DNA of 60,066 nt from positions 1 through 60,066 of IMG/VR virus record IMGVR_UViG_3300027367_000243. One strand, written 5' to 3'. Positions 8,564 to 33,606 of the stretch are shown in pieces. The notes below the pieces were generated by a model that did not search any database, was not told the DNA's origin, and saw nothing but the letters and a program-made list of their open reading frames with translations. Position 1 is the stretch's first letter. Every line of letters starts with the position of its first letter. The position numbers and the translations under genes are program-made. The stretch is from a virus. Taxonomy: Duplodnaviria; Caudoviricetes.

Positions 8564-11500
8564 ATGCCAAGTGTAAACAAACAACAATTAATAGCGGTAC
8601 TTCCTGAATACAGCAATGTTATTAGAGGACAACAAGACGCCGCAACTATTACCTTACATAAAGATTATGTAGGTAACTCAATAGACATAGGATCTATTAC
8701 TGACGTAAAAGTTGAATATTTAAATAACGATTTAACTGTATTTAAAACTCAGTCAAAAGTAAACGCAACATTAACTTCTGGTTCTGGTGAGAGTAGGAAT
8801 GCTATAAGCCTTTCTATGACTGGTGATGAAACTTTAGCGTTAACATTAGATGCAAATAACATTAACGGAGAAGTATGGGCAAGAATAACTATTACTGAAG
8901 GTATTAGCCCAGTTGTATTACCTCTTTTAAAATTAGGTAATGTATATAATCCAGGCCAATCAATTGGTGATACTGTAGCATCTAGATATGGAATGCCAAG
9001 TACAGTATATGGAATTAAGGATTTAGGTAATCAATATGATGGATCTAATCCTGCGGCTGGACAAATCTATTTTAACTCAGATATTCCATCTCAAGTTAGT
9101 AAAATTAAACTAGCTGTTAAAGATGATAAAGGATTTAGAAATGAATACTTAGAAAATTTACTAGAAAAAAGAATTACTGTTGATGGAAACTCAACAAACA
9201 TATTCTTTACTAATACAAAAAACAACAGTGAATACGCTGTATACCAAATTACATCTTGGAACTGGGTAAATGTTACAGACTTAGATTCTGCTAATCCTAA
9301 CTCAGAAGAAGATGATGATGCAATAGAATTAAATGTAACTTTCGATTCTAACTCAACAATACCAGGTGAAATATATCAATTCACTATAGGTGATGACTTT
9401 GGGTTATTCTACGAAACATATAATATATCTGCACCATCTAATGTAATGGTAGATGTTAATGGTACAAGATACAATGATATTAGATTAATTAATATGACTG
9501 GTGGTGTTATCGCTAGTGAAGATAAAGATAACTTCCCTAATCAAATTAATTTACAATATTCCGAACAATTTACTTCTTCCGGATCTTCAGGAACTTCTGG
9601 TTCAAGTGGTGTTGATGGTCCTCAAGGTATTCAAGGTGAAAAAGGTGATCGAGGTGATGGTGGACTAACTGGTCTTAAAGGTGAAGATGGTAGAGTCGGT
9701 GATAAAGGAGACATTGGTGTCGATGGTGCTGTAGGACCAATTGGACCAATTGGACCACAAGGTGCATCTGGAAATGATGGAGCTGATGGAGCTCAAGGTT
9801 TACAAGGCTTACAAGGCTTACAAGGTCTTAGAGGTGAAGTTGGAGCAAACGGTGTTGATGGTAACAATGGTGTTGATGGTGTTGATGGAGCTAAAGGTGA
9901 AGAAGGTGCTTCTGCATATAGAGTATATGCGGATGGCGAATCTAATCCTCTTTCAAAAAGTGATTGGCTAAAAACATTAATAGGTCCTGACGGAGCTGCT
10001 GGTGCTCAAGGAGCAACTGGTGCTGATGGTGTTGATGGAGCTGACGGTGCAGATTCTACTGTAGCTGGTCCTGCTGGAGCTGATGGTGCTAAAGGAGATC
10101 AAGGAGATATAGGTGCACAAGGTGCAACTGGAGCTCAAGGTGCTACTGGTGCAGATTCTACTGTACCTGGTCCTGCTGGAACTGACGGTGAAAAAGGTGC
10201 TGATGGTGCTGACGGACCACAAGGTCCATCCGGTGGACAAGGTTTACAAGGTATTCAAGGAGCTGCTGGACCTAGAGGAGATAAAGGAGACGTAGGTCAA
10301 AGAGGTGAAAAAGGTGAAAGAGGTGATGCTGGCGTAGATGGTGCTGATGGTGCTGACGGAGCACAAGGAGCTCAAGGAGCAACTGGTGCTGATGGTGCAG
10401 CTGGAGATAGAGGATTTGATGGAGCTCAAGGTAATCAAGGTGACCCGGGTCAAAAAGGTCAAACTGGTATTCAGGGTATTCAAGGTGCTCAAGGAGCACA
10501 AGGTGCTGCTGGTAACGATGGCGCTGATTCTACTGTAGCTGGTCCTGCTGGTAACGATGGCGCTGACGGCGTTGACGGAGCTAAAGGAGATCAAGGTGCC
10601 ACTGGTGCTGCTGGAGCTCAAGGAGCAACTGGTGCACAAGGTGTTGCTGGTGAAAAAGGTGAAGATGGTCAAAAAGGTGAAACTGGTCAAAATGGAGCTA
10701 ATGGTGCTGATGGAGCTGACGGTAACGTTGGTGCTCAAGGTGCTCAGGGAACTCAAGGAGCAACTGGTGCTGCTGGACCACAAGGTAATAAAGGTAATCA
10801 AGGTGAAAAAGGTAACCAAGGTGAAGTTGGAGCAACTGGTGCAGATTCTACTGTAGCAGGTCCAACTGGTAATAAAGGTGATGTAGGTGTTCAAGGAGCC
10901 CCTGGCGTTGCTGGTGCTAAAGGTGAACAAGGTGTTGCTGGTAATGATGGTGCTAAAGGAGATCAAGGAGATATTGGCGCTCAAGGTGCTCAAGGTGAAA
11001 CAGGAGCAACTGGTGCAGATTCTACTGTAGCTGGTCCTGCTGGTAACGATGGTGCTGCCGGAGCTAAAGGAGAACCTGGAGCAGAAGGTGCTGCTGGAGC
11101 ACAGGGTAATCCTGGTGCAGATTCTACTGTAGCCGGTCCTGCTGGAGCTAAAGGAGAGCCTGGAGCTGATGGAGCTGATGGAGCTGCTGGTGCTGACGGA
11201 GCAACAGGTGGCGTAGGCCCTGGCATTACACTTAAAGGTAATGTTGCTAATGTAGGTGATTTACCTGCAAATGGAAATACACAAGGAGATGCTTATATAG
11301 TACAATCAAATGATTCAATGTGGATCTGGAACGGATCTGTATGGATTGACGGTGGATCTATTCAAGGACCACAAGGGTTAAAAGGTGATTTAGGTCCTGG
11401 AGGTCCTGATGGTGCTCCTGGAGCTAAAGGAGAGCCTGGAGCTGATGGAGTTAATGGAGCTGATGGTGCTGATGGTGCTGCTGGTAACGATGGTGCTGCT

Positions 11501-12218
11501 GGAGCTAAAGGAGAACCTGGAGCTGATGGTGCTGCTGGTAACGATGGTGCTGCTGGAGCTAAAGGAGAAGCTGGAGATCAAGGTATTCAAGGTGTAAGCT
11601 AAAGGAGAAGCTGGAGATCAAGGTATTCAAGGTGTAACTGGTAGTACTGGTCCTGCTGGAGCTAAAGGAGAACCTGGAGCTGATGGTGCTGCTGGTACTA
11701 AAGGAGAAGCTGGAGCTGGCGGTGGCGCTGGTGGCGGAGTTAAATACTTATTAAGATTAGAATATGATGTTAATGAAACTCTAGTTACAAGTAATACTAC
11801 ATTTGTTACTGCAACTGGATTTGCAACTGCAGGAGCAAGTGTTGTTTCTCAAACTGCAAATGCTGGTTCAAACACTGGGCATAATGTAACTCTTAATTTC
11901 GCAGACACGAATCCTCCAACATCGATTATCGGTTATGGTTGGAATCCTCAGACTGGAAATTATACAGCTGCGGCATACGATAGAGATACTAAACAAGTAC
12001 AATACGAAGTAGGTCTTAGTGCATTTACTAACCAATCAACTACAGACGGTGGTTCTGGTGATAACGGACAATGGGCTGGAGCTTCATTCTCTGGTGCTGG
12101 ATCATATAACATCAAATTAGATGTTGATCAGTCAGCGTTATCTTATGGTAATGCAGTTGCTGGAGCATTTGGAAACCCATCTAAGTTTCCTCATGCATAC
12201 TTAATAATTTCATTCTAA
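8564..12218 (+). CDS. collagen-like fibre protein, frameshifted at a 40-bp tandem duplication (1204 aa if one copy is removed)
   Basis: Globular N-terminus, long Gly-X-Y region; ORF stops at 11602 but Gly-X-Y and a globular C-terminal domain continue in the shifted frame 11598-12218. Confidence 0.8.
11558..11637 (+). repeat. exact 40-bp direct tandem duplication
   Basis: gctaaaggagaagctggagatcaaggtattcaaggtgtaa at 11558-11597 and 11598-11637. Confidence 0.95.
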
Positions 12219-12233
12219 TAAGTAATAAAAGAT

Positions 12234-12256
12234 AGGGTGGCTTCGGCCACCCTTTA
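12234..12256 (+). terminator. stem-loop with cUUCGg tetraloop (terminator or RNA-stabilising hairpin)
   Basis: agggtggc-ttcg-gccaccct, short T run. Confidence 0.65.
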
Positions 12257-12275
12257 AATAATAACAAAAAGGTAA

Positions 12276-14207
12276 ATGGCTAATTACAACATAGATAACC
12301 CGATACTATTCTTAAAAGGAACAGTAACATCTACAGAAATATCTAAGAGATATGAACATAATGATGAATCCGGATTAGGACCTAATGGTTCTAATATTGG
12401 TATTGAATTTAATATTACTGTTAGTTCTATTGATACTCAATCAATTGGTTCTGATGAAACTAGATCTGGTACTACTAGAGCCTATACAGGATTAGATATT
12501 AAAACTGGAGATTGGTTAGTTAATAACGAGGGTAAAACTTGTTTACAGATAATTAAGATGAATGCAAAGTCTGAAGCTTCTGTTTCTTTTGTTGCAAAAG
12601 ATGTAGATGCATTCTCATATAAAAACTATAGAGCAAATGGTTTTATTGCTGGAATTACAGAAGTTGCTTTCTTTGAAGTATCTGATTCTGGTAAACCATT
12701 AATCGCAGGTGAAGATGCTGCTAGTTTCTTTGGTGATAAAGTAGCTGTAGATTTACTACAGTCTAGATTTGCTATTCAAGAAGAAGACGAAAGATTTAGA
12801 ATGGAGTTCGATACTCCACAAACTGTAAGTAAAGGTCAAATAGTTAGTATTGGTGCTGATGGTAATCTATTACCATTTGGAAATGCAGGTGCTTTTGATT
12901 TTAAATTAGGACTAGTTGTTTCAACAGGCTATAACAATACAGTGGTTCATATTAAACCATTCAATACTATTATTGATAATTTTAATGTTCCATCTAGTTT
13001 AGCTGCAGGATCCGCAGGTGATACATGGTATACTTCAAATATAAAAGCTGGAGATATTACTAATGTTGAAGCAGATGGAGGAGATAAAGTTTACTTTCAA
13101 TTTAGAGATGCTATTCCTACTGTAGTTACAGCAAGTGTTGCTAATATAGCATCAACTACTGGAGACTCACTTAATATAAATACAATAAATTACGCAGTAG
13201 CTAACTTTGAAAATTTAGATACTGCAGGAATAGTTGCTTTAATCAATCAAGATAGCGCGGACAGCGGTGTAGTAGCAAGTAACCCTTTATTACCAACTAT
13301 ATTAAAATCTTATGATGGTGGTTTAAACCCAGCAAATGGTGATGTTGTGATAGTATCTTCTGCCGATGCAGGAGCAAATAACTCTGTTATGTCGATTACA
13401 ATTTCAGATGGTAATAATAGTAGTGATGTCCTTTTTGGAACATCCGACGGAACATTCCCTGGAACTGGAGGTGCATACTTAACTATTTCAGCTACTCAAA
13501 TGGCTATAGATATTAATACAGCTTGTACAGCAAACAATGTTGATATTACAGCTTCTACTGAAGCAAACACAGGTGGTAACAACAATGCATCATATCCAAG
13601 GTTAGTTTTAACTTTAGGTTCAGGTATTGGTGGTACTGCAACTGGTATTACAATTACGGAAACAGCTGGTGATGCTGCTGGGCAAACTTTTGCACAAGCA
13701 ACAGCAATGCCACTTACAGCAACAGTATCTACTGATTCTATTCTAACATTAACAAGAGCAGATGGTGGTGATATTGGCTTAACTGGAAGTGGTACATTCG
13801 TTAACGCTAACGGTATGGTATCTTCATCTGCAGGTACTCCACCTCTTTTAGTAATGATCGAGGATGAAGAAGGATCTGGCGGAGGAGTTGCTGAAACAGG
13901 TGTTGATATTAGAGAAGTAATTTCATGTAATAATACATCTAACGATGGAGATCCAGTAGGTGGTAGTATTACATATACTCCGTTCTCAGACGGTAATGTA
14001 ATAATTAAAGTAAATGGATTAGCTGCCGGTTTATCAAACGATAAATCTGGCCCTATTTATTTTTCAGATGACGATGGAACAACTGCAAAAACAATTGCAA
14101 ATATTACTGCTGGAGATTCTTTATATTGGAATGGTTCAGTTGCAGGTTATCAATTAGAGACTAGTGATGATTTAGATATTGCATATCAAAAATCTTCTAA
14201 CGATTAA
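12276..14207 (+). CDS. putative virion structural protein
   Basis: 643 aa, G/S/T/D/N-rich, lies in the fibre module. Confidence 0.6.
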   Translation: MANYNIDNPILFLKGTVTSTEISKRYEHNDESGLGPNGSNIGIEFNITVSSIDTQSIGSDETRSGTTRAYTGLDIKTGDWLVNNEGKTCLQIIKMNAKSEASVSFVAKDVDAFSYKNYRANGFIAGITEVAFFEVSDSGKPLIAGEDAASFFGDKVAVDLLQSRFAIQEEDERFRMEFDTPQTVSKGQIVSIGADGNLLPFGNAGAFDFKLGLVVSTGYNNTVVHIKPFNTIIDNFNVPSSLAAGSAGDTWYTSNIKAGDITNVEADGGDKVYFQFRDAIPTVVTASVANIASTTGDSLNINTINYAVANFENLDTAGIVALINQDSADSGVVASNPLLPTILKSYDGGLNPANGDVVIVSSADAGANNSVMSITISDGNNSSDVLFGTSDGTFPGTGGAYLTISATQMAIDINTACTANNVDITASTEANTGGNNNASYPRLVLTLGSGIGGTATGITITETAGDAAGQTFAQATAMPLTATVSTDSILTLTRADGGDIGLTGSGTFVNANGMVSSSAGTPPLLVMIEDEEGSGGGVAETGVDIREVISCNNTSNDGDPVGGSITYTPFSDGNVIIKVNGLAAGLSNDKSGPIYFSDDDGTTAKTIANITAGDSLYWNGSVAGYQLETSDDLDIAYQKSSND

Positions 14208-14390: not shown

Positions 14391-15599
14391 ATGGCAAGAT
14401 TAAAAGTAAAACAAATTAGTGATTTCACTACTGCTGTTCAAACGCTTATCGATAACGATGTGGATCAAAATGCTGGAGATATTTCTTCTGCACTTTCTGC
14501 TGGTGTATCTGCGGGTGTAAATGCTGATGGAGTTCAGACAAACCTTAATACGGTTTCTGATGCTTTATCTGTAGAGGTTTCATCTACTAATTCTGACGTA
14601 GTTAGAATTGATGCTCTTTTAGCTTCAGCTGCAGGTAACGCGGACGTAACCGCAGTATCTGACGCTTTAAGCGTAGAGATTTCATCTACTAATTCAGATG
14701 TAGTTAGAATTGATGCTGCTGTAAGCACTGAGATTTCATCTACTAATTCTGACGTAGTTAGAATTGATGCTCTTTTAGCATCAGTTGCTACTGACGGAGA
14801 GTTATCTTCAGAAGTTGCATCTATTGACACTAGAATTTCTAATGAAGAAAGTACTAGATCTGCAGACGTAAAAGCTGTAAGCGACGCTGTAGTAGCTATC
14901 TTAGATGGTTCTACTACTAACTTAGATCAGTTTGCTGAAGTTATTTCTTACGTTGACAGTTTAGATACTGCTGACGGTGGAGCATTAACATCTCAAATTG
15001 CATCTTTAGAAGGCGTAGTTTCTGCTAATTCATCAAGTGATGTAGTTCTTTCTACTGCTTTAAGCACTGAAGTTTCTGCAACAAACTCTGATGTACTTAG
15101 TATTGAGACTGTATTAGGGACGATGGGAACATCTGAAACTATTACAGCTATCTCTACTGGTTTATCAACTGAGATTTCTACTACTAATTCAGAAATAGTT
15201 GCGATTGACAATTCAATCGACGCATTAGAAGCACAGATGTTATCTGTAGCGACTGACGCTGAGCTTGGAACTATCTCAACTGCTTTAAGTAGTGAAGTTT
15301 CTGCAACAAACTCTGATGTAACTAGCTTAGAAAACTTGATCGGTACTGCTGATGATATGGCTCATGAATTTGGTACCTTTAGAGGTGTCACTTCATTCGC
15401 TATCGCTAACGCGGTTCAATTCTCAGGCACAGATGATTTATTAGTATTTGTTAACGGACACAATATTCACCCATTTACTGGGAATGAAGAAACTGGTGTA
15501 GGTTATCAAACTCCTGATGGATTAACATTCAATTTCACAAATATTGGATATGACTTAGAAGCGACAGATACTTTCTACGTAACTGGTAAAAAAGCATAA
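14391..15599 (+). CDS. putative coiled-coil fibre protein with LSxEISSTNSDV repeats
   Basis: About six repeats of (L/V)S(T/V/S)E(I/V)S(S/A/T)TNS(D/E); acidic S/T/A-rich; globular C-terminus. Confidence 0.6.
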   Translation: MARLKVKQISDFTTAVQTLIDNDVDQNAGDISSALSAGVSAGVNADGVQTNLNTVSDALSVEVSSTNSDVVRIDALLASAAGNADVTAVSDALSVEISSTNSDVVRIDAAVSTEISSTNSDVVRIDALLASVATDGELSSEVASIDTRISNEESTRSADVKAVSDAVVAILDGSTTNLDQFAEVISYVDSLDTADGGALTSQIASLEGVVSANSSSDVVLSTALSTEVSATNSDVLSIETVLGTMGTSETITAISTGLSTEISTTNSEIVAIDNSIDALEAQMLSVATDAELGTISTALSSEVSATNSDVTSLENLIGTADDMAHEFGTFRGVTSFAIANAVQFSGTDDLLVFVNGHNIHPFTGNEETGVGYQTPDGLTFNFTNIGYDLEATDTFYVTGKKA

Positions 15600-15695: not shown

Positions 15696-16964
15696 ATGAA
15701 AATAGGAATAACTTTAGGTCTTAAGAAGAAGAATGAAAGTATGTGGATTAATGGTATTAAGCTTAATGCCATATTTTTAATGAATGCTTTACAAAAGACT
15801 GGAAATAAAGTAGTTTTATTAGATACTAGTAATGAAGTTTCTAGATCTAAATCCGGGAAATTAAAAGACGATGAGATTGTATGGGATTCTAAAAAGTTTC
15901 CAATATATGATTACACTAAACATTTACATACTTGTGATATACTAATATTATTAGGAACTGCAATTGGACCAGAACATGTAGATAATTTTAAATTAACAGG
16001 TCCAAATAAAAAGGTTATCAAATATGCATGTGGAAATAACTACGTTATTGACATGGAAAACATGATACACAAAAAAGGCGAAGAGGTAGAAAAGATCGGA
16101 GTTACATTTAATCAAAATATAGACGAGGTGTGGTATGTTCCTCAACAAGGCTACCAAAACCAAGACTATTATTCTATTACACATAGGTTACCAAAAGAAA
16201 AAGTATTTCCAGTACCTTTTGTTTGGGACCCAATGTTTATTGATGAGATTGAAGGTCAATATGGTGGAATGGTTGTAGATGAAGATGGTAATGAAATGCA
16301 AAAGACTGATGATATTCCTGTTTACCAACCTGGTAAAAAGACTAAAGATTTAGAATTAACTGTATTTGAACCAAATTTAAACGTGGTAAAATTCAGCATG
16401 ATACCTATGTTAATCGCAGAACAATATTTACATAATGGCGGTGATTTGTTTAAAAGGCTAAATATTATTAGTGCTTCTGGTTTATATAAAAATCCTCTTT
16501 GGCAAAAGTTTGTAGCTAAGCTACATCTTACTGAGAAGAAAAATAAAGATAATGAAAGTTTATTAATGGTAAGACATAGATTTCCTATCCATTACATATT
16601 ATCAAAAATGACAGATATTGTAATATCGCACCAATGGGAAAACCCGCTTAACTACGCTTATTTAGATGTGATGTATTTACAATTCCCTTTAATCCATAAT
16701 GCTGATATGATTAAAGATGCTGGTTACTTTTATCCAGACTTTGAGGCAGAAAAAGGAGCTGATCTATTAAAGTGGGTTATAGATAACCATGACGACAACA
16801 TAGACTCGTATAACGAAAAGAACGAAGAAGTCCTAACAAGATATACAGTTTACAACGAGGGTCTAGTAGACACATACAAGAAGCTCTTAGAAAACCTAAA
16901 AGCCGGAGAAAACAAACACAGTTTAAGTTTAGAATATGACTGGAAAACAAATCTATATAAATAA
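15696..16964 (+). CDS. DUF2827-like protein (putative GT-B glycosyltransferase)
   Basis: MKIGIT..W.NGI..N, CGN.Y, VPFVWDP, FEPNLNVVK, VISHQWENPLNY.YLD, PLIHN recalled as DUF2827-family motifs. Confidence 0.65.
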   Translation: MKIGITLGLKKKNESMWINGIKLNAIFLMNALQKTGNKVVLLDTSNEVSRSKSGKLKDDEIVWDSKKFPIYDYTKHLHTCDILILLGTAIGPEHVDNFKLTGPNKKVIKYACGNNYVIDMENMIHKKGEEVEKIGVTFNQNIDEVWYVPQQGYQNQDYYSITHRLPKEKVFPVPFVWDPMFIDEIEGQYGGMVVDEDGNEMQKTDDIPVYQPGKKTKDLELTVFEPNLNVVKFSMIPMLIAEQYLHNGGDLFKRLNIISASGLYKNPLWQKFVAKLHLTEKKNKDNESLLMVRHRFPIHYILSKMTDIVISHQWENPLNYAYLDVMYLQFPLIHNADMIKDAGYFYPDFEAEKGADLLKWVIDNHDDNIDSYNEKNEEVLTRYTVYNEGLVDTYKKLLENLKAGENKHSLSLEYDWKTNLYK

Positions 16965-17848
16965 TGAATAAAAACGCTATAATAGTTTATATTAATGATT
17001 CTGATAAAGCACTAACAGAATTTAGTTGGCTATATAAGACCTGGTTAATGTGGTCTATAGATAAATCATGGGATATAGTAGCATTTGCTAATCCATCTAT
17101 AATAGAAGACTTTAAATCAAAATTTCATCATGAAAATTTAAAAGTTATTGAGATGTTATCATCAGATACTCCAATTGCTAATCCTTATGCAATGTTTAAA
17201 GATGATAATAACATTGAAATGCTAAAAGAATATGAATTCTTATTTAGAACAGAATGTGATAGTTTCTTAACTAAACATTTTGCAGATTTTAAACCATGGA
17301 GAGATAAAGTGTATGTTGGCATTGGATTACATGCAGCAACAACTCATCCTGGAGATTTAATTAGAGAGAAATTAAAAATCATATCTAGTACTTTAGGACT
17401 TAAATGGTATGGTCATTCACATATAGGCCATAATTTATTAGCTAGTTCTGAAATGGTAATTGCAAATTCTATATTACAGACAGGTTTAACTAAATGGTTA
17501 TTAGAAAATAGCTTTACAAATGGGGATGGAGCATATCCAAGTTGGTTTAAAGGGGAAGTCTCCCAGTATGCACATGAATTAGTAATAAATAGTAATGTTA
17601 GCCCCTTGGGAATACACCAAGGCAGTATTGATACATGGTGCGGTAGTAATGAAATAACTTCATTAGATCTACACATAAGAGCATGGCCACAATCGAATGA
17701 TGCCTTTTTTGATAAAGTGAAATACCACGCTGGTAATTTACCTAAAATTAAATTTAATGAAGTACCTAAAACTGCTGGAGAATACTGTGTATTCGTGGCA
17801 GATACAGATATTAAAGAGATGCTTTTATTAAATAAACAAAATATTTAA
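16964..17848 (+). CDS. hypothetical protein, possible degenerate GT-A-like fold
   Basis: YEFLFRTECDSFLT resembles a DxD-region; coupled to upstream gene. Confidence 0.5.
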   Translation: MNKNAIIVYINDSDKALTEFSWLYKTWLMWSIDKSWDIVAFANPSIIEDFKSKFHHENLKVIEMLSSDTPIANPYAMFKDDNNIEMLKEYEFLFRTECDSFLTKHFADFKPWRDKVYVGIGLHAATTHPGDLIREKLKIISSTLGLKWYGHSHIGHNLLASSEMVIANSILQTGLTKWLLENSFTNGDGAYPSWFKGEVSQYAHELVINSNVSPLGIHQGSIDTWCGSNEITSLDLHIRAWPQSNDAFFDKVKYHAGNLPKIKFNEVPKTAGEYCVFVADTDIKEMLLLNKQNI

Positions 17849-20900: not shown

Positions 20901-20996
20901 TTATATGTTGGAGGTTTAGTTAACTCACCGGAATACTTATTTAGAAGTGGTGGTGAAATAACTAGCGATGGTTCAACAATGAGGTTTCAATTTTAA
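17928..20996 (+). CDS. Gly-Ser-Ser/Gly-Thr-Ser triplet-repeat fibre protein
   Basis: Hundreds of residues of GSS/GTS/GSD triplets broken by two copies of a ~45-aa GYSGAKS...W.G..WE module and one globular insert. Confidence 0.8.
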   Translation: MSRLKLKQIQEILLSNLQNGDYLAYNSTNATFENTAAPLDGSSGTSGSSGTSGSSGTSGSDGTSGSSGSSGTSGSDGSSGSSGTSGSSGIDGEKGADGAAGSSGTSGSSGVDGSSGTSGSSGIDGELGPAGEDGAPGSSGTSGSSGSSGTSGSSGTSGSDGSSGSSGTSGSSGTSGADGEGGEQGEKGDAGTSGSSGTSGSDGSSGSSGTSGSDGSSGTSGSDGTSGSDGSSGSSGTSGSDGTSGSSGTSGSDGSSGTSGSDGTSGSDGSSGSSGTSGSDGTSGSSGTSGSDGSSGSSGTSGSDGSSGSSGTSGSSGYSGAKSANDIEGLGNGEFVGQVGFTSDGKVYIWTGDTWEETQDLNGSSGSSGTSGSDGSSGSSGTSGSDGSSGSSGTSGSDGTSGSSGTSGSDGSSGSSGTSGSDGSSGSSGTSGSDGSSGSSGTSGSSGSSGTSGSSGTSGSSGSSGTSGSSGSSGTSGSSGTSGADGNFGGASFDYTLASATGASQPADGRLRLSNFTTQNAASSIYINQTDDDNGSVESFFTALDAVTSGVKAHIRISKKFNTDEYLLFAIGDLTDNGLWWTLGDLSNVGSSSTSPFSNGDDIVISLVATGDKGDSGSSGSSGSSGTSGSDGSSGSSGTSGSDGSSGSSGTSGSDGSSGTSGSDGSSGSSGTSGSDGSSGSSGTSGSDGSSGSSGTSGSDGSSGSSGTSGSSGTSGSDGSSGSSGSSGSSGSSGTSGSSGYSGAKSGTNLAGLGEGEFTGQLGYTSDGKIHQWNGEAWEEVRDLDGSSGSSGSSGSSGSSGSSGSSGTSGSDGSSGSSGTSGSDGSSGSSGTSGSDGTSGSSGSSGSSGSSGTSGSSGTSGSSGSSGSSGSAGSSGSSGTATITNLSNNRILTSTGVQGAANAEANATFDGTSLVGPTQFAAASGNNASKFRMWGNSATYGIGMVSGQTFGYLNDYAMMFQMNNQTGRGWKWQYESQAAGSGAMSLTTDGKLYVGGLVNSPEYLFRSGGEITSDGSTMRFQF

Positions 20997-25822: not shown

Positions 25823-28800
25823 ATGGCTGACTATAAGAAAATATTGATCGCAGGTAACCCAGCGTTTACCACCGATAACATGCATCCGGACCACTTTGGT
25901 TATTTAGGTGGAGAAAAAGGACATGATGGTGATAAAGGTGATATTGGGCCAAAAGGTAATAAAGGTGGATTAGGACCTGGTGGTGATAAAGGTAACAAAG
26001 GCGGCACCGGAGATGGTGGCCAAAAAGGTACTAAAGGTACTAAAGGACTAAAAGGTCTAATTGGCGGCGGTGGCGACCAGGGTGCTAAAGGTGTTCAAGG
26101 TCTTAAAGGTATCGAAGGTGCTAAAGGTGTAATCGGTGACCACGGCGTTGTCGGTGCTAAAGGTATCTTAGGAGGTACTGGTGATAAAGGTAATTTAGGA
26201 ACTGGTGGTGATGGTGGTGCTAAAGGTAACCAAGGTGCTAAAGGTATTAAGGGTAAAAAAGGCGAGATCGGCGCTAGCCCACAAGGTGCTAAAGGTCCTG
26301 TAGGTGATTCTCCTCAAGGCCAAAAAGGTTTTACTGGCCCGCAAGGAGGTACTGGTGATAAAGGTTTAAAAGGTGGCCAAGGTTCTAAAGGTAATTTAGG
26401 AACTGGTGGAGATACTGGTGCAAAGGGTGGTGTAGGTGATTCTCCAAGAGGGGAGTTCGGAATAGAAGGTGACCAAGGTGGTGTAGGTGATTCTCCAATA
26501 GGTAACAAAGGTGCAAGAGGAGATATTGGCGACCAAGGTGGTGGCGGTGATTCTCCAAAAGGTGCAAAAGGCGGAACAGGTGATCAAGGAGGAAGAGGTG
26601 ATTTAGGTGCTTCTCCAACCGGTATAAAAGGTAATAAAGGGGCTCAAGGCCCAACCGGAGCAAAAGGTTTAACTGCAAATAGTCCAAAAGGAGACGTAGG
26701 AGCAGGTGGTGCAAAAGGTGTTCAAGGTGGTGTAGGTGATTCTCCAATTGGTAATAAAGGAGGTGCTGGCGATATTGGTGCAAAAGGTGTTCAAGGTGAT
26801 TCTCCTGTAGGTGATAAAGGTGGACTTGGAGATACTGGTGCTCAAGGTGGTGGCGGTGATAAAGGTTCTCAACCTACTGGTGATCTAGGTCTTCAAGGAA
26901 ATGTTGGTGCAACCGGTGATAAAGGTACTCAACCTACTGGTGATAAAGGTAACAAGGGTAAAAAAGGTGCCATAGGCGGTGGAGGTAATAAAGGTACTCA
27001 ACCTACTGGTGATGTTGGCGCTCAAGGTGCGACCGGTGCAACTGGTGATAAAGGTACTCAACCTACTGGTGATATTGGTGCTAAAGGTGCTCAGGGACCT
27101 AAGGGTGGTATCGGTGATTCTCCTAAAGGTGCTAAAGGTAAGATTGGTGCTGGTGGTGATATTGGTGCAACTGGAGATAAAGGTGCAACAGGACCAACTG
27201 GAGAAAAAGGTTACTTAGGTATTAATAATACTAACATGTTAGATTATTCAACATGGACTGTAGGTAATACTTCAGCTACTGGATTTTCGCGTAATGGTGG
27301 TTCAAATGAAAACATATTAGAATACGGTGAAGGACCTTATGGAGAAAACACTGTATTATGGAGAACTATACCAGATGGTACTAGTAATGGTGGTGATGGT
27401 GGATGGAACAGTTCATTCCATAATGTAGATCATACTAAACTATATAGAATTAGTGTATGGGTAAAAAGAACTTCAGATCAAGCAAACGGAACATTTTATT
27501 TAGGAACAAATGGAGGTGGAGCCTGTGTATTATATGGAAGTGATGGTAGTTCGTCACAATGTAATCCTTATTTTGAATGTCGTGGTGTTGGTGGTTATAC
27601 AAAAGATGTATGGTATTTAGTAGTAGGTCACGTATTTCCTTCTGGAACTGGTGCAACTTCTAGACATGCACAAACTGGTGTATATACAATTGCTCAAAAC
27701 GGTCAAGTATTTGAAACTAATGGATGTAACTTAGGTGGTGATGCTGTAATGCACAGCACGACTACATCACTTAGACATAGAACATATCATTACTATGCTA
27801 ATAGTGTTGGTACAGAATTAGTATTTGCATATCCTAGATTAGAAGAGGTTACTTCTGAAACTCCAGATATAGTTGATGCTTATTTAGCTGATGGTTTTTC
27901 TAATACTGGAGATCAAGGTTCAGGTGGACTTCAACCAATTGGTGATATTGGTGATCAGGGTGCAGTAGGTACAACTGGTGATAAAGGTTCTCAACCTACC
28001 GGAGATAGAGGTGGTGTTGGAGATAATGGTGCTGGTGGTGATAAAGGTATTAAAGGTATACAACCCAAAGGCGTGACTGGAGATGGAGGTGCTGGAGGTG
28101 ATAAAGGTATTAAAGGTGTACAACCTACTGGTGATCAAGGTGACCAAGGCGGTGCAGGTGCTAAAGGTATTAAAGGTGTACAGCCTAAAGGTGTGACTGG
28201 AGATAGAGGCGGTGCAGGTGATAAAGGTATAAAAGGTATACAGCCACTAGGTGAGCAAGGTGACGCAGGTGGTGGAGGTGATAAAGGTAACCAAGGACCT
28301 GCGCCTACAGGTGCTCAAGGTGGTCAAGGTGATGAAGGTGGCGAAGGTGCTAAAGGTATTAAAGGTGTACAACCTACTGGTGATAGAGGTGACGCAGGCG
28401 AAGGCGGAGCTAAAGGTATTAAAGGTGTACAGCCATTAGGTGAGCAAGGAGATCTTGGTGATCAAGGTGCCATAGGCGGCGGAGGTGATCAAGGTGCAAA
28501 AGGCGCAACAGGTGCTCAAGGTGATAAAGGTCCACAAGGAAAAACTCCTATAGGACCACAAGGTCCTGCAGGTGATTCTCCACAAGGACCTAAAGGAATT
28601 CCTGGAAATAAAGGACAAGCCGGAGTGTCCAGTGTAGGTGCTACTGGTGATGCAGGTGGTGCTGGAGATCAAGGTGGCCCCGGAGGAAGAGGAGGACAAG
28701 GTCAAAAAGGTGAAGCTGGTTTTACCGGTCCAAGTGGAGGTTCTGGTGCTGGTGGAGGCCAAGGACCACAAGGTGCAAAAGGTGCAAAAGGTCCAACAGG

Positions 28801-29044
28801 AGCAACAGGACCAACAGGACCTGCTGGTGGTGGAAAACCTGAAGTCATGTATTCTGCTTCTGCATATTACGGCGGTACTGTATATTGGACTTCCGGTGGA
28901 CGTCCCATGAGTCGTTATGTAGGGTCTAGACAAAACACTAGTTTTTGTTCATCTACATATCCAACAACATCACATGGTTATTTTACTATTAGTAGAGAAG
29001 AGTCGGGAGATGATATGTGTTTAATGATGTTGGAACCAAGGTAA
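25823..29044 (+). CDS. collagen-like fibre with interrupted Gly-X-Y and central globular (CBM-like) insert
   Basis: GDK/GAK/GIK triplets with regular GDSPxG and GxQPxG interruptions; ~230-aa insert. Confidence 0.85.
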   Translation: MADYKKILIAGNPAFTTDNMHPDHFGYLGGEKGHDGDKGDIGPKGNKGGLGPGGDKGNKGGTGDGGQKGTKGTKGLKGLIGGGGDQGAKGVQGLKGIEGAKGVIGDHGVVGAKGILGGTGDKGNLGTGGDGGAKGNQGAKGIKGKKGEIGASPQGAKGPVGDSPQGQKGFTGPQGGTGDKGLKGGQGSKGNLGTGGDTGAKGGVGDSPRGEFGIEGDQGGVGDSPIGNKGARGDIGDQGGGGDSPKGAKGGTGDQGGRGDLGASPTGIKGNKGAQGPTGAKGLTANSPKGDVGAGGAKGVQGGVGDSPIGNKGGAGDIGAKGVQGDSPVGDKGGLGDTGAQGGGGDKGSQPTGDLGLQGNVGATGDKGTQPTGDKGNKGKKGAIGGGGNKGTQPTGDVGAQGATGATGDKGTQPTGDIGAKGAQGPKGGIGDSPKGAKGKIGAGGDIGATGDKGATGPTGEKGYLGINNTNMLDYSTWTVGNTSATGFSRNGGSNENILEYGEGPYGENTVLWRTIPDGTSNGGDGGWNSSFHNVDHTKLYRISVWVKRTSDQANGTFYLGTNGGGACVLYGSDGSSSQCNPYFECRGVGGYTKDVWYLVVGHVFPSGTGATSRHAQTGVYTIAQNGQVFETNGCNLGGDAVMHSTTTSLRHRTYHYYANSVGTELVFAYPRLEEVTSETPDIVDAYLADGFSNTGDQGSGGLQPIGDIGDQGAVGTTGDKGSQPTGDRGGVGDNGAGGDKGIKGIQPKGVTGDGGAGGDKGIKGVQPTGDQGDQGGAGAKGIKGVQPKGVTGDRGGAGDKGIKGIQPLGEQGDAGGGGDKGNQGPAPTGAQGGQGDEGGEGAKGIKGVQPTGDRGDAGEGGAKGIKGVQPLGEQGDLGDQGAIGGGGDQGAKGATGAQGDKGPQGKTPIGPQGPAGDSPQGPKGIPGNKGQAGVSSVGATGDAGGAGDQGGPGGRGGQGQKGEAGFTGPSGGSGAGGGQGPQGAKGAKGPTGATGPTGPAGGGKPEVMYSASAYYGGTVYWTSGGRPMSRYVGSRQNTSFCSSTYPTTSHGYFTISREESGDDMCLMMLEPR

Positions 29045-29070
29045 TAATAAATAAAAAAGAAACATAAATA

Positions 29071-29916
29071 ATGGCATTTAGTTATATAGGAAATAGAAAA
29101 TGGGCTGGAGATCCTAGATTTGTAACACATGAAGGACCTACTGGATCTGCTTTAGCAAAAGTAAGACAGTTAGAGTCTTATTATTTCTATTTTAATGAAT
29201 TAGGAAAAGCTTTTGGTTTCGGTCACGTAGAAGATGGTGGTGCAGAGATTAGAAATATAGGTTTAATTGCACAGGAATTAGCTGCTATAGAGCCTTCTTT
29301 AGTTAAACCTATGGATTATGAATGGACTACTTATGAAGATGAGACATATTATTGGGTAGATTATGAAGCTTTGCAAATATTATGTTTAGATGCTCTTAAT
29401 GAATTAAATGTTAAAGCAGATAATATTAAAACTCAATTAGGCATGGAAGTAGAAACTTACCCTGCAATATACTCAGGACCTATGCCACAATTACCAAGCG
29501 ATCAATATGAAATAACATCTATTGACGTAACTCCTGTTAATGGTGCTGAAGGAACTGAAGTGACATGGACTTTAAATGGAACTAATTTACCTAATAAATT
29601 GAGTGTTGCTTTTAAGCTTACTGGAACTTTTAATTATCAGGATATTGTAGGAGTTGTTGAAGAATCTAATAAATCAGAATTAATAATAGCTGATTCTAGT
29701 GAAGGCTTTAATATTCCGGAAGCTAAAACTGAACTTGGAGATGCATTTGGTAGTTTTGTTGTTAATAATGGTATTGCTACTATAAAAATGTTATATGTAA
29801 AAGATAGTGAAGTAGAAGGTGATGAGACTATTACAATGACACTTCTTTCTGGTAAAGATTCTTTTGGTAAAATATTACCCTCAATAAGTACTACAGCTAC
29901 TATTACAGATTCTTAA
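29071..29916 (+). CDS. stand-alone S74-like chaperone domain fused to an Ig/Calx-beta-like domain
   Basis: IGLIAQEL, VDYEAL..LDALNEL at N-terminus; DSEVEGDETITMTL at C-terminus. Confidence 0.7.
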   Translation: MAFSYIGNRKWAGDPRFVTHEGPTGSALAKVRQLESYYFYFNELGKAFGFGHVEDGGAEIRNIGLIAQELAAIEPSLVKPMDYEWTTYEDETYYWVDYEALQILCLDALNELNVKADNIKTQLGMEVETYPAIYSGPMPQLPSDQYEITSIDVTPVNGAEGTEVTWTLNGTNLPNKLSVAFKLTGTFNYQDIVGVVEESNKSELIIADSSEGFNIPEAKTELGDAFGSFVVNNGIATIKMLYVKDSEVEGDETITMTLLSGKDSFGKILPSISTTATITDS

Positions 29917-29959
29917 GTAAAGGAGCTAGGATAGATATATTCTAAACAAGCTCTTTAAT

Positions 29960-30466
29960 TTGCGTAAACATTTATTACTTATATTAGGTTTATTTGTTTT
30001 CTTCTTACATTTAGTAGAAGAAACTAAACCGGCGCAAAATAATTACACAATTCCTACTTTTAAAAGATTCACATTAAATGATGTGCTTAGTAATGAAAGT
30101 ATAGTAGAGTTTGTTCAAGACTCTTTACTAAAACCCCCATATAAATCTGCTTATATAGATGTGAAATGGGGACCACTACATCCACGCATTCTTGGATTAA
30201 CTACAAAGGTTAAAGACGGTATATTTTTTATTCAACTCAGTAGGGGCATATCATTAGAAGAAACTCAAAAAGTTTTGATGCATGAGCTAATTCATGTTTA
30301 CCAATTTCACTATAATTTGCTAGAAGATTTACCTAACGGAAATGTTCGCTGGAAAGACAGTGTTTATACATGGAGTATGGCTTGGAAAGATCGACCTTGG
30401 GAAATCCACGCGGAAGCTTGGAGTACCAAACTATTTAAGACTGATAGCTTATACCTGGAGAACTAA
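29960..30466 (+). CDS. zincin-type metallopeptidase with N-terminal signal/TM segment
   Basis: VLMHELIHVYQ (HExxH) and RPWEIHA; TTG start. Confidence 0.7.
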   Translation: MRKHLLLILGLFVFFLHLVEETKPAQNNYTIPTFKRFTLNDVLSNESIVEFVQDSLLKPPYKSAYIDVKWGPLHPRILGLTTKVKDGIFFIQLSRGISLEETQKVLMHELIHVYQFHYNLLEDLPNGNVRWKDSVYTWSMAWKDRPWEIHAEAWSTKLFKTDSLYLEN

Positions 30467-30555
30467 TCTGGCTTTAAGGTTAAAGACATAACTTATATGC
30501 ACTCTTCTAGAAAAGGTTTCATGTGGTACAAATAAAATCTAGATAAATAATAAGT

Positions 30556-30581
30556 AAACAATTCCTATTTTAATTATATAA
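30556..30581 (+). promoter_or_regulatory. AAAC-N17-TATAA promoter-like motif heading the oxygenase/glycosyltransferase genes
   Basis: AAAC 30556-30559, TATAA 30577-30581. Confidence 0.6.
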
Positions 30582-30600
30582 CAATTAAACATTAATTTCG

Positions 30601-31227
30601 ATGAGTAACGTAACATATACATTTGATCAAAAAGAAAACGATCCACAACAATGGTATTGGTTTAAAGAAGGTCTAACTAAAGAAGAAGTAGAAAGGGTTA
30701 TCCAAATGGCCGCTAAATTACCACAAGTAAGAGCTACGACTATTGGTGATGATGGAGATACTAAAGAGGCTACTGAAAATAGATCTTCTATGGTAAAGTG
30801 GATTCCACAAACTAATGAATGGGACTGGTTATATGAAAGGCTTATTGGTATGGCTCGTGAGGCAAATGATAACACATGGGGCTTTGATTTAATGTCTGCG
30901 CCTGAAAATATTCAATATACAGAATATTATGCATCTGAAGAGGGACATTATGATTGGCATCAAGATATTGGCGCTGGTGAATTACCTTCTAAAAGAAAGG
31001 TTTCTATTACTTTACAATTATCAGCAGATGATGAATATGTAGGTGGTGAATTGCAACTTACTGGAGGTGGAGATGGAAATGGAGGTATAATTGAATCAAC
31101 AACACTACCAAGAGGTAAAGGTGTTGGTGTTTTATTTCCAAGTTATATGATGCATAGAGTTAGTAAAGTTACTAAAGGAGTAAGAAAGTCTTTAGTGCTT
31201 TGGGTAGGTGGAGCTCATTATAGATAA
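30601..31227 (+). CDS. 2OG-Fe(II) oxygenase (prolyl-hydroxylase-like fold)
   Basis: YDWHQD (HxD), RKVSITLQL, Y.GGEL, FPSYMMHRV..VTKGVRKSLV.W. Confidence 0.88.
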   Translation: MSNVTYTFDQKENDPQQWYWFKEGLTKEEVERVIQMAAKLPQVRATTIGDDGDTKEATENRSSMVKWIPQTNEWDWLYERLIGMAREANDNTWGFDLMSAPENIQYTEYYASEEGHYDWHQDIGAGELPSKRKVSITLQLSADDEYVGGELQLTGGGDGNGGIIESTTLPRGKGVGVLFPSYMMHRVSKVTKGVRKSLVLWVGGAHYR

Positions 31228-31228
31228 T

Positions 31229-32323
31229 ATGAAAATACTATTTTGGATAGGTTACACGTCTTATACGTGGGATGGAAATACAAAGACTGGCCTAGGAGGT
31301 ACAGAAATAGCAGTGATTAATATTGCAGAAGGCTTAGCAAGACATGGATATGAAGTTACTGTATCTGGTACTGTTAATAATGCAAGAGTTAATAATGTAG
31401 AATGGATTGACATAAATAATTTTACAGAAAAGTATTCGAATCTACCAAATCACTTTGATACACATGTTGGAGTAAACTATATTAACTTCATAAAATATGC
31501 AAAGGATGCTAATCAAGATAATGCATTTAAAATATTTTGGATGCATAATACAGATTACTATGATTATTACCAAGGCTCTAATCTAGAAAACCACACAGAA
31601 TTACTTAATACAGTGGATGTAATATTTGCTCCTTCTGCTTTTGCAATTAATGCAATATCACCACAGATAATAAATAATGGTTATTTAGGAGCAGTTAAAG
31701 TAATGCCTAACGGAATCAATCTAGATAGTTTTAGAGCTAATGTTCAAAAACAACCTGGTAAATTTATATGGTCATCAGCAGTCGATAGGGGTTTAGCAGA
31801 ATTATTAGATTATTGGCCAAAGATAAAAGAGGCAATACCTGGAGCAACACTCGACGTATATTATCCAGCATATTCAGATCCACATTTAGAAGGATGGTAT
31901 AATATACATGGGGTTTTAGATAAGCTTAAAGCTACTAAACATTTAGGAGTTACAGAAATAGGAAGTGTATCTCAATCCGAATTACATATAGCCATGCAGA
32001 AGGCCACATATTGGATGTACCTAACTCAATATGAAGAAACATTCTGTATTACAGCATTAGAAATGATGGCGGCTGGGGTATTACCAGTATGCTCAAATAA
32101 AGCAGCATTAGCAGAAGTAGTACAAGATGGTATAATAATACCAACTGCTGATTATGAAACAATGTTTAATATGGCGATAAAAACATTAGGCGGGATTAAT
32201 GTTGACATTAAACGAAAATCAATACATGCGGCCAAAGAAAGAGTAAAATTATTCACATGGGATAATGCTACTTCAAAATGGTTTAGCTTTTTACAATACG
32301 ATAAAAAACAATTATGGAAATAG
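31229..32323 (+). CDS. GT-B (GT4-like) glycosyltransferase
   Basis: GLGGTE, WMHN, PNGI, SS..DRGL, EETFCITALEMMAAG; probable start ATG 31229. Confidence 0.85.
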   Translation: MKILFWIGYTSYTWDGNTKTGLGGTEIAVINIAEGLARHGYEVTVSGTVNNARVNNVEWIDINNFTEKYSNLPNHFDTHVGVNYINFIKYAKDANQDNAFKIFWMHNTDYYDYYQGSNLENHTELLNTVDVIFAPSAFAINAISPQIINNGYLGAVKVMPNGINLDSFRANVQKQPGKFIWSSAVDRGLAELLDYWPKIKEAIPGATLDVYYPAYSDPHLEGWYNIHGVLDKLKATKHLGVTEIGSVSQSELHIAMQKATYWMYLTQYEETFCITALEMMAAGVLPVCSNKAALAEVVQDGIIIPTADYETMFNMAIKTLGGINVDIKRKSIHAAKERVKLFTWDNATSKWFSFLQYDKKQLWK

Positions 32324-33606
32324 GAAAAATATACATTGTCAATTCCGGCAGTCAAGCGGAAGAAAGACAACAACATTTAGTAAACAAATTAGAAAAGTGT
32401 AACTTTATATCGAATACATTATTTGAAGTTATTAATGTACAAGAGTTTCCAGAAGGTTTACCAGAAGGATATAAAGTAGGACCTGTTGAAATGTCGACAG
32501 AAGATATTAACGAAACAATCACACATAGAATGATATGGGAAAAGATTGTATTTGATGGTATTGATAACGTCTTAATTTTAAAAGATAATTTTCTTTGTAA
32601 TAATTCAATTTCACAATTACCATTTCCAGATGATACAGTAAAATGGGATCTTGCATTTCTTGGTAGGGCTGATTTTACTCATAATGATTTAGTTAGTATT
32701 GATGATAATTGGGTTAGACCACAATCAATAGGAGCTATATCAGGTTATGTAATTAATAAAATAACAGTAGCACCATTATTACTATCTGCCGGACTTAAAG
32801 AAAACTTAGTTCCAATCGATAAGTTTTTAAGTGCAACATGTTATCCATATCTTCCTGAGGAAGAAATCCAAAATTTATTTAAATCAGGACTACAAGCTAT
32901 TGGAACTAAAATACCTGACTATATTAGTTATTCCAGTGGAAAAGTTAAGCCTGATCTTGAAGAAGTTAAAGCAACTATAACAGATGAACCATATTACGAA
33001 ATATTAGATGACGCTAATTGGGATGTATGGAAAGAGAAATATGTAAACTTGTCAGTATCAAAAGGCGAGTGGGATTTAATGGTTGATGATAAAGGCGATA
33101 ACATTTATGAATTTAATTTATTTACACCTAAATTCTGTAAAGACGCAATTGCATTAGCAGAATCTAAAAATAAATGGACGCAAGATCGACATGAATTTTA
33201 TCCTACTAATGATGTACTATTACCAGAGCTTGGATTAAATGATATTTACAATAAAGTATTAGATGAAATAGTTAGACCACTCTCGATTCATCTATGGAAA
33301 CTTGAAGGTAAATCTTGGGACGCATTCTCAAATGAAAACTTCATGGCTATTTATACTACTGATAGACAATCACATTTATCATTACACCATGATCGAAGCC
33401 ATTTAACATTAGTAATAAAATTAAACGATGAATTTAGCGGAGGTGGAACGTGGTTCCCTAAATACCAAAAGCTAATTAATCCAGAAGTTGTGGGTACTGC
33501 AGCACTTCATCCTGGAATGGTAACACACCAACATGGTGCTAGGCCAATAACTGCAGGTAAGAGATACATTATAGTATCATTTATTAGAACACACGATAAT
33601 CCATAA
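32314..33606 (+). CDS. GT25-like domain fused to PLOD-type (procollagen lysyl hydroxylase-like) 2OG-Fe(II) domain
   Basis: C-terminal PTNDV, NFMAIY, LSLHHDRSHLTL, FSGGGTWF, GTAALHPGMVTHQHGARPITAGKRYIIVSF parallel the PLOD catalytic domain; N-terminus IYIVN...H..IWEKIV...VLIL. Confidence 0.8.
   Translation: MEIGKIYIVNSGSQAEERQQHLVNKLEKCNFISNTLFEVINVQEFPEGLPEGYKVGPVEMSTEDINETITHRMIWEKIVFDGIDNVLILKDNFLCNNSISQLPFPDDTVKWDLAFLGRADFTHNDLVSIDDNWVRPQSIGAISGYVINKITVAPLLLSAGLKENLVPIDKFLSATCYPYLPEEEIQNLFKSGLQAIGTKIPDYISYSSGKVKPDLEEVKATITDEPYYEILDDANWDVWKEKYVNLSVSKGEWDLMVDDKGDNIYEFNLFTPKFCKDAIALAESKNKWTQDRHEFYPTNDVLLPELGLNDIYNKVLDEIVRPLSIHLWKLEGKSWDAFSNENFMAIYTTDRQSHLSLHHDRSHLTLVIKLNDEFSGGGTWFPKYQKLINPEVVGTAALHPGMVTHQHGARPITAGKRYIIVSFIRTHDNP

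Follow-up and report, generated by a model that had tools for sequence, protein, structure and literature searches.

Hydroxylysine and the sugars attached to it count as hallmarks of animal collagens, mimivirus L230 being the single outlier. Here we describe a locus of a tailed virus (Duplodnaviria; Caudoviricetes; IMG/VR virus record IMGVR_UViG_3300027367_000243) in which genes for long collagen-like fibres are followed by gene 32314, encoding a GT25-like glycosyltransferase (GT) domain fused to a lysyl hydroxylase (LH) domain; the window, meaning the stretch of DNA analysed, is the whole record of 60,066 bp, and genes are named by their first nucleotide (Table 1). Sequence comparison identifies the system as a bacteriophage form of the L230/PLOD-type collagen modification system, the core of which is well supported by independent comparative lines. 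L230 itself has two such domains, a GLT25D1-like GT domain at the N-terminus, with E106-D107-D108 as its putative motif, and an LH domain at the C-terminus (PMC9614988). In collagen peptides, viral as well as human, it hydroxylates Lys and then adds glucose to the product (PMC9614988; PMC5802723), and in the virion analysis given in the first of these reports, hydroxylysine was detected in mimivirus but its glucosylation was not (PMC9614988).

The collagen-like fibres of phages and prophages and the bacterial collagens Scl and BclA resemble those of the window in their long Gly-X-Y runs devoid of Pro in Y; frequent Pro in X and frequent Thr or Gln in Y make up the typical prokaryotic pattern (PMC8968730), and a C-terminal S74 chaperone domain is shared with trimeric phage fibres. 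What differs is Lys, which is generally unmodified in prokaryotic collagens (PMC8968730), whereas the window carries a dedicated LH/GT cassette and fibres that are unusually rich in Lys (82 and 66 in Y) without KGE/KGD pairing. Where that review deals with such modification, it names only mimivirus (PMC8968730). Other dioxygenase families have been predicted to hydroxylate bacterial collagen-like proteins (Iyer et al. 2010, PMC2938197): in those 2-oxoglutarate (2OG)-dependent systems, as here, dioxygenase genes adjoin Gly-rich collagen-like or tail-collar proteins, taken as the substrates, but an LH/PLOD-type domain, a GT25 fusion and a phage tail-fibre context do not figure in the account given of these families (PMC2938197). 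In pelagimyophages, glycosyltransferases of 'host recognition clusters' beside tail fibres have been presented as modifiers of the host lipopolysaccharide (LPS) or O-chain (PMC7029224). No description of a lysyl hydroxylase or of hydroxylysine in a bacteriophage was found in the literature searched (full text), in keeping with the original prediction, made from the DNA letters, which treats such a pathway as not known to be characterised in phages.

The 32314 product follows L230 (LH structure PDB 6AX6) in the order of its domains, a GT25-like domain and then an LH domain. Its residues 237-424 align with the LH domain of L230 over the whole length, N-terminal helical part included (E 3.2e-25, residues 34-234 of the 235 in the L230 chain; phmmer against PDB), and with that of human LH3 (E 5.5e-22), the next family, prolyl 4-hydroxylase, reaching only E 0.018. 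The iron- and 2OG-binding residues are the same: H358, D360, H407 and R417 are spaced as H825, D827, H877 and R887 of L230 and occur without exception in the 26 relatives aligned, and their motifs are retained in all 116 proteins of a larger alignment (the window protein and the 115 of 120 listed homologues with at least 400 residues, the 5 shorter ones being left out). At the position of L230 L873, a dimer-interface residue four before the distal His, the window protein has V403 and its relatives Val or Ile, hydrophobic residues other than Leu. By homology, then, a collagen LH domain makes up the C-terminal half of the 32314 product. The shared domain order makes the phage protein an L230-type enzyme in compact form and not a new architecture; it measures 430 residues against 895 and lacks a middle region of about 340. 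Mimivirus and the phage each also encode collagen-like proteins with Lys in Y. Several features nevertheless set the two apart: the phage enzyme comes from a tailed bacteriophage and would act in the bacterial cytoplasm; its gene lies inside a tail-fibre module with a GT4 enzyme and a second oxygenase; and its GT half, in the clade of close relatives to which it belongs (the window clade), is without the E-x-D motif.

The comparison with human LH3/PLOD3 and COLGALT1 (GLT25D1; PDB 6FXK, 8ZGC, 9EVJ) runs along similar lines, given the LH homology and an N-terminal domain with the fold of the COLGALT1 GT25 domain. The human activities are brought together in a non-covalent complex (PMC11897130) and those of the phage in one chain. 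Unlike the human proteins, the window protein lacks the PLOD GT/AC domain, which is present only in some relatives, and its GT25 domain lacks residues aligning with COLGALT1 E435 and D437. The phage partner enzyme is of the GT-B/GT4 type, whose fold has no part in the glycosylation of animal collagens, and the phage system has no endoplasmic reticulum, signal peptide or lysyl oxidase.

The four long Gly-X-Y proteins that had been predicted are all present on the + strand, span 904-1073 residues and match Pfam Collagen (E 6e-80 to 4e-19). Residues in X and Y were counted only in runs of at least four Gly-X-Y triplets. The 23088 product has 82 Lys in Y and none in X (90 Lys overall), with 64 Pro in X and none in Y, and Thr in Y 53 times; the 25823 product has 66 Lys in Y and 4 in X (82 overall), with 14 Pro in X and 2 in Y. 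The expected preference of Lys for Y and of Pro for X is thus borne out in both, and GAK, GQK, GDK and GIK are indeed among their commonest triplets, together with GNK and GPQ. A Lys in Y may pair with an acidic residue in the next triplet, and this is what the acidic 8564 product appears to do: Asp or Glu follows the next Gly after 19 of its 23 Y-Lys (none in X), against a background frequency of 0.19 for Asp or Glu in X, a KGE/KGD pairing that we take to be of the stabilising type. The frequency of KG[DE] is below background in the 23088 (3/82) and 25823 (3/66) products, so that their lysines are not explained by salt bridges. This separates the four proteins as potential substrates. The 23088 product is the prime candidate and the 25823 product a further candidate, whereas the 8564 product is unlikely to be a main substrate, and the Ser-rich 17928 product, with 5 Lys in Y and none in X of its repeats (KG[DE] 2/3), is not a plausible one; the proposal that the fibres are the substrates would accordingly hold for two of the four.

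The two candidates differ in build. The collagen part of the 23088 product is strongly basic (net charge +54, isoelectric point 10.2) and contains the longest uninterrupted Gly-X-Y run, of 146 triplets; a Peptidase_S74 intramolecular-chaperone domain (residues 800-859) closes the chain as at the ends of long tail fibres, and tblastn against cultured phages, in which the low-complexity filter masks the repeats, matches this domain only, in annotated long-tail-fibre proteins. The 25823 product is near neutral (net charge +6) and consists of two collagen arms around a globular domain (residues 469-706), which has a 75%-identical counterpart in the related viral locus L002. Its arms carry a regular two-residue insertion every 6-7 triplets (G-D-S-P-x, G-[TS]-Q-P-T, G-[IV]-Q-P-x), and these periodic interruptions could kink the fibre at regular points or shift its register.

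A search of viral contigs with the single protein gave no loci; an alignment-based scan gave 30, the best 18 of which (L002-L019) were compared with the window. The succession of collagens, S74 piece, HExxH protein, 2OG oxygenase, GT4 and GT25-LH genes recurs in related viral loci, and across L002-L019 the succession 2OG, GT4, GT25-LH, HAD phosphatase, ATP-grasp and 3'-5' exonuclease recurs as well. In the closest contigs the last three (window positions 33616-36134, downstream of the LH gene) are 88-95% identical and the GT4 and GT25-LH genes on the 30601-33606 side only 36-51% (43-51% for the LH/GT genes when the closest loci are compared, against 88-95% for HAD and exonuclease), a gap across the boundary which indicates that fibres and enzymes form a fast-evolving module beside conserved core genes. 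A collagen-like open reading frame (ORF) lies upstream of the LH gene on the same strand in 13 of the 18 loci (10 of the 11 whose upstream flank spans a full 10 kb) and downstream in none. Among the 5 loci without one upstream, 2 carry collagen repeats in another part of the contig, L016 fell outside this check, and 2 are 14-15% fragments that end less than 2.5 kb upstream. The contig of the distant locus L020 encodes a very large collagen with Lys in Y. As a control, 80 viral loci anchored on thymidylate synthase (ThyA; 1.20 Mb) were scored by the same ORF criterion: 3 have a collagen-like ORF, all of them nearest kin of the window, where its synteny predicts one, and the LH gene occurs in none of the 80. 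The association of PLOD-like genes with collagens, proposed as a check on the prediction, is therefore found (13/18 against 3/80; Fisher p = 7.5e-10, computed on related genomes that are not independent samples). From this co-occurrence we predict that the 32314 enzyme hydroxylates Lys in X-Lys-Gly of unfolded collagen.

The association extends to a second lineage of 49-67 kb phages, one of them 96% complete, in which the LH domain is a separate gene; the cassette is split there and comprises, besides this LH gene, a GT25 gene, a further three 2OG oxygenases and a gene with weak likeness to PLOD-GT; a 30601-type 2OG oxygenase adjoins LH in both phage lineages. On the 96%-complete contig (L024, positions 4893-13096 of the 67-kb G008) the cassette adjoins a family-B DNA polymerase gene, one of the oxygenases is a DUF6445 protein, and an FkbM methyltransferase protein with a weak GT25 match is encoded upstream. 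Four contigs on which LH stands alone or is fused differently were scanned in full, and each of them encodes long collagens whose Lys is confined to Y (103; 63 and 21; 12 and 8; 34 residues; none in X). Over the de-duplicated collagen-like ORFs of the LH loci, Lys occurs 792 times in Y and 25 times in X, with KG[DE] in 140 of 785.

With the LH domain alone as query, an exhaustive HMMER search returned 2,229 cluster representatives (clustered at 50% identity) at E <=1e-3, 554 at 1e-10 and 77 at 1e-30. In a pattern-limited scan the family appeared in 1 of 185,579 species genomes, on a phage-like contig. This sole hit, L126, is a 24-kb contig binned into a Flavobacteriaceae metagenome-assembled genome (MAG) and carries the same module in the same order: two Y-Lys collagens, 2OG oxygenase, GT4, GT25-LH, HAD, ATP-grasp and exonuclease. 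Misplacement of a phage contig in a bacterial bin is the probable explanation, so that L126 gives at best a weak pointer to a host. Another GT25-LH homologue, P0089 (47% identical), has a listed longest contig of 104 Mb, well beyond the size of any phage or bacterial genome, and could be an insertion or a contamination in a eukaryotic assembly.

The N-terminal half of the 32314 product is a more equivocal matter. Its Pfam GT25 score (E 0.0077, 16.6 bits) lies under the cut-off of 24, and it finds no sequence match to COLGALT1 at E up to 10. Its fold is modelled well (predicted local distance difference test, pLDDT, about 88), and outside LH3 its best structural match is human COLGALT1, in the catalytic GalT-C domain (9evj; Foldseek E 9e-11, root-mean-square deviation 3.1 A over 234 columns). 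The kinship is plainer in relatives with an intact N-domain: that of P0025 reaches E 2.4e-7 with the catalytic domain of human COLGALT1 and only 0.025 with bacterial GT25, and its alignment with COLGALT1 covers the blocks G-E-[IL]-G-C..S-H, E-D-D and P-V-D-E-[FY]-L. The cryo-electron microscopy study of the human complex reports E435-x-D437 as the Mn2+-binding motif of COLGALT1 and a complete loss of activity on either substitution, E435A or D437A (PMC11897130). From the P0025 alignment we infer that these residues map onto E-D-D (an offset of 40 fits R354, S415, E435 and D437). At this position the window protein reads K90-D91-N92, and a deletion of about 20 residues has removed its GEIGC block, leaving E-D-I-N-E-T-I-T-H. 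Across the 116-protein alignment, E-[DE]-D is retained in 95, one has DAA, and the Glu is lost in all 20 members of the window clade, which have also all lost the GEIGC motif. The N-domain has diverged 3.5-fold relative to the LH domain in this clade, against 2.2-fold in the intact clade, and 53 of its residues are invariant across the 20 sequences. The losses and the invariant residues suggest that the GT25 half is here probably a constrained, non-catalytic domain, and that any glycosylation would fall to the GT4 enzyme 31229; the window domain as an active hydroxylysine glycosyltransferase was considered and rejected. A GT25-PLOD fusion had been predicted: the LH half and a COLGALT1-like fold are there, and the catalytic motifs are not.

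The GT-B glycosyltransferase and the 2OG oxygenase expected directly downstream of the fibres are confirmed by family matches. The 31229 product matches Glycos_transf_1/Glyco_transf_4 models (E 3.7e-8, 1.5e-7 and 4.1e-5) and phrog_2170 (E 7e-15) and has E270-x7-E278, presumably the motif called E-x7-E; its gene overlaps that of 32314 by 10 nt. Domain fusions tie the two together. When the 150 best LH relatives were sorted with two probes, the window GT4 and an intact GT25 domain, 23 proved to be single GT4-GT25-LH chains (739-858 residues), 33 GT25-LH and 3 GT4-LH (529-565 residues, with no GT25 detected by the GT25 probe), the other 91 being LH only by these probes; Pfam confirmed the architectures in 10 of the 150. 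The triple fusions repeat the gene order of the window, which argues that GT4 belongs to the same pathway, and GT4 is likely the sugar-adding partner in the window clade. Two relatives show further combinations: P0122 is a GT25-GT_PLOD-LH chain of 641 residues with a PLOD GT domain (E 2e-46) in the middle, and P0134 is a Peptidase_C39 domain fused to LH (607 residues).

The comparisons above show homology, a conserved active site, synteny, co-occurrence and domain fusions; from these we infer the substrate of a pathway, the order of its steps, the sugar and the biological role. Fibre chains still unfolded in the host cytoplasm would be hydroxylated by the LH domain of 32314 on the Y-Lys of Gly-X-Lys repeats, mainly in the 23088 and 25823 products, with consumption of 2-oxoglutarate and O2 and with Fe(II) at the active site. 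The hydroxylysine would then probably be O-glycosylated, in most relatives by the fused COLGALT1-like GT25 domain; in the window clade, where this domain would be a non-catalytic fold, sugar transfer would fall to the adjacent GT4 enzyme. The second oxygenase, 30601, may add a further hydroxylation, X-position Pro being one guess for its substrate. The modification could shield some 150 exposed lysines from proteases, or tune the charge of the fibre and host recognition. Taken as a whole, a fibre module with a modification cassette in which LH action precedes glycosylation is the explanation that we favour and hold to be fairly probable; hydroxylation of fibre Lys seems to us probable to about the same degree, and glycosylation of the hydroxylysine in this phage is less assured than its hydroxylation. 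The idea that Y-Lys fibres, a PLOD/L230-type LH and glycosyltransferases form one phage system thus has strong comparative support in LH homology, synteny, co-occurrence and fusions, the degenerate GT25 half correcting it in a detail.

Several points weigh against this pathway. All the support for it is comparative and none comes from experiment. The contigs compared are related genomes with shared synteny, and the p-value consequently overstates their independence. Lys confined to Y may be a general property of viral collagens, the counts covering LH loci only. The most distant LH-like genes found, stand-alone and 34% identical (L029-L031), lie beside a collagen-like ORF without Y-Lys, and the residue targeted in this subgroup may be another one. 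AlphaFold models the LH domain poorly (pLDDT 28-60 over residues 329-411, the catalytic core), so that the LH fold rests on sequence homology; in a Foldseek search with this low-confidence model, LH3 (E 9e-13) and L230 (E 2.5e-8) still come out on top. Glycosylation in this phage is the weakest link, with both COLGALT1 E435/D437 equivalents missing from the GT25 half. We know of no GT4 enzyme that is a collagen or hydroxylysine glycosyltransferase, and this one could act on Thr, which is abundant in Y. In the L029-L031 loci (10001-11776) the next protein has an N-terminal membrane helix and GPP/GAT/GIQ/GDQ repeats.

Some of these points would fit a pathway that stops at hydroxylation, the LH domain making hydroxylysine, no sugar following in the window clade, whose GT25 would be dead, and GT4 serving fibre Thr/Ser or a target outside the fibre. 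Glycosylation of fibre Thr/Ser has a precedent in Bacillus BclA, and the 53 Thr in Y of the 23088 product would offer sites; the clade-wide loss of both GT25 motifs and the missing sequence match to COLGALT1 point the same way, as does mimivirus itself, with hydroxylysine but no glucosylation found in its virions in the report cited (PMC9614988). Against this, homologues of the GT4 are fused to LH in 26 of the best 150 relatives, 3 GT4-LH chains among them, which argues that the two share one substrate; the invariant residues of the N-domain also argue that the degenerate domain retains some role. We regard an arrest at hydroxylation as unlikely. Less likely again is that the LH-like domain performs a different chemistry, on another residue or on a virion protein that is not a collagen, with Y-Lys merely making a cationic fibre that binds an anionic surface. 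Substrate specificity is not readable from sequence, the charge of the 23088 collagen part would by itself favour binding to an anionic envelope, and the L029-L031 genes sit beside a collagen devoid of Y-Lys. These genes are the most divergent of the set, however, whereas the identity with L230 and LH3 runs through the entire LH domain, helical part included, and Lys is the one feature common to LH-linked collagens in at least three phage lineages, with the strong bias to Y noted above.

The last alternative turns the enzymes outward: the glycosyltransferases and oxygenases would have the host as their target, either its envelope (LPS or O-chain) or its proteins, for instance as a barrier to superinfection, and the collagens would be mere neighbours. 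GT25 and GT4 are, by their Pfam and NCBIfam names, classic LPS/exopolysaccharide families, phage glycosyltransferases beside tail fibres have been taken as modifiers of the host O-chain (PMC7029224), and in the smaller-phage lineage the cassette adjoins a DNA polymerase gene instead of a collagen gene. Yet the oxygenase half is specifically a collagen LH, with a 20-order gap in E-value to the next family; intact GT25 domains are closer to COLGALT1 than to bacterial LPS enzymes; a collagen gene accompanies LH on every adequately sampled contig; and the single occurrence in the pattern-limited scan of species genomes is on a phage-like contig. A host-directed role is hence very improbable in our view, and we retain the favoured sequence of LH action on the fibres followed by glycosylation. 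A bolder version of it would be that tailed phages of the ocean run a complete cytoplasmic pathway of collagen Lys hydroxylation and O-glycosylation, assembled from shuffled GT4, GT25, PLOD-GT and LH modules, with the LH domain widespread; the COLGALT1-like domain of the window would be a pseudo-enzyme, its GT4 a new type of hydroxylysine glycosyltransferase, and metazoan PLOD/COLGALT and L230 offshoots of an older phage toolkit. This we find possible but doubtful.

Should the favoured pathway be true, the range of hydroxylysine would extend into bacteriophages and the question of its origin would become testable. It would also explain why glycosyltransferases cluster with the tail fibres of marine phages, where their target may be the fibre itself instead of the host. 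A lysyl hydroxylase of 430 residues, possibly with a GT4 partner, that evolved for the bacterial cytoplasm would be an attractive tool for modified recombinant collagens produced in bacteria, and a clade with a dead GT25 domain would amount to a natural experiment on the non-catalytic role of that domain.

As to the virus itself, the window (CheckV completeness 19%; GC about 33% outside the collagen genes; all long ORFs on the + strand) has tail-fibre hallmarks in its S74 and tail-fibre PHROG matches and additionally encodes a dCMP deaminase and a helicase, with no capsid or terminase gene in the window itself. Terminase_6N scores above cut-off on 4 of 5 large related contigs, the best of which has 212 kb and a completeness of 76%, and Phage_sheath_1 on 0 of 5; the terminase large subunit places the lineage among tailed phages of jumbo size, and a giant-virus origin was rejected on the same evidence. 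A homologue of the 32314 product, 75% identical, stems from a Tara source and thereby points to a marine setting. Cultured phages show no DNA similarity to the window beyond one 122-bp match; by tblastn, none in the collection has a GT25-LH fusion, and 11 records give weak matches to the 2OG domain only (28-31% identity). The locus at 8564-33606 is thus best explained as the fibre, or host-recognition, module of a marine tailed phage, uncultured and with a genome of some 280-320 kb, joined to a fibre-modification cassette.

Table 1. Features of the collagen fibre module, its enzyme cassette and the upstream genes in the window
Feature	Position	Strand	Length	Remarks
Thymidylate-synthase-like genes (two)	1659-2603; 5405-6268	+		Either side of the Lon-like protease gene
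Lon-like ATP-dependent protease	3342-5354	+		phrog_4871, E 2e-240
ClpP-like head-maturation protease	6560-7234	+		PHROG match; just upstream of the fibre module
Collagen-like fibre protein 1	8564-11602	+	1012 aa	Pfam Collagen; acidic, collagen part net charge -54
Protein without family match, presumed structural	12276-14207	+	643 aa	42%-identical relative in the L010 fibre region
Ser/Thr/Ala-rich protein, presumed fibrous	14391-15599	+	402 aa	Repeated SSTNSDVVRIDA-type / EISSTNSDVVRIDA-like units; no family match
DUF2827 protein	15696-16964	+	422 aa	E 1.4e-85; candidate GT-B glycosyltransferase, lead only
DUF7164 protein	16964-17848	+	294 aa	
Ser-rich collagen-like protein	17928-20996	+	1022 aa	Pfam Collagen; GSS/GTS/GSD triplets
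Protein without family match	21019-23043	+	674 aa	Counterpart (36% identical over 580 aa) conserved upstream of the Y-Lys collagens of L002
Basic Y-Lys collagen fibre	23088-25802	+	904 aa	Pfam Collagen; 255 triplets
Second Y-Lys collagen protein	25823-29044	+	1073 aa	Pfam Collagen; 222 triplets
Tail-fibre piece	29071-29916	+	281 aa	S74-chaperone-like segment, residues 25-79; PHROG tail-fibre matches
HExxH protein	29960-30466	+	168 aa	Hydrophobic N-terminus; H108; weak SprT-like metalloprotease similarity
Second 2OG/Fe(II) oxygenase	30601-31227	+	208 aa	2OG-FeII_Oxy_3, E 3.4e-12; YbiX/PiuC-like
GT4 (GT-B) glycosyltransferase	31229-32323 (GTG opens 31208)	+	364 aa from ATG	
Compact L230-type GT25-LH fusion	32314-33606	+	430 aa	GT25 fold, residues 1 to about 205; LH domain, about 232-430

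Two further genes inside the module had been described as glycosyltransferase-like, and they fare differently. For the 15696 product a weak GT-B lead comes from a language-model comparison, in which the nearest named clusters are GT56, GT4 and phage DNA alpha-glucosyltransferase (scores 0.91-0.93); the protein belongs to DUF2827, has no match in PDB, and its single-sequence fold (pLDDT 33) says nothing on the fold. The description fails for the 16964 product, a DUF7164 protein for which neither PDB nor Pfam (no further match at E up to 5) gives evidence of a glycosyltransferase, and which is not related to the PLOD-GT-like protein of L024. The second oxygenase has the residues H120-x-D122, H185 and R195. 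The gene for the HExxH protein is syntenic in L002 and L003, between fibres and enzyme cassette, and its product may be a fibre-processing metalloprotease; the 21019 product is presumed to be a fibre or receptor-binding component.

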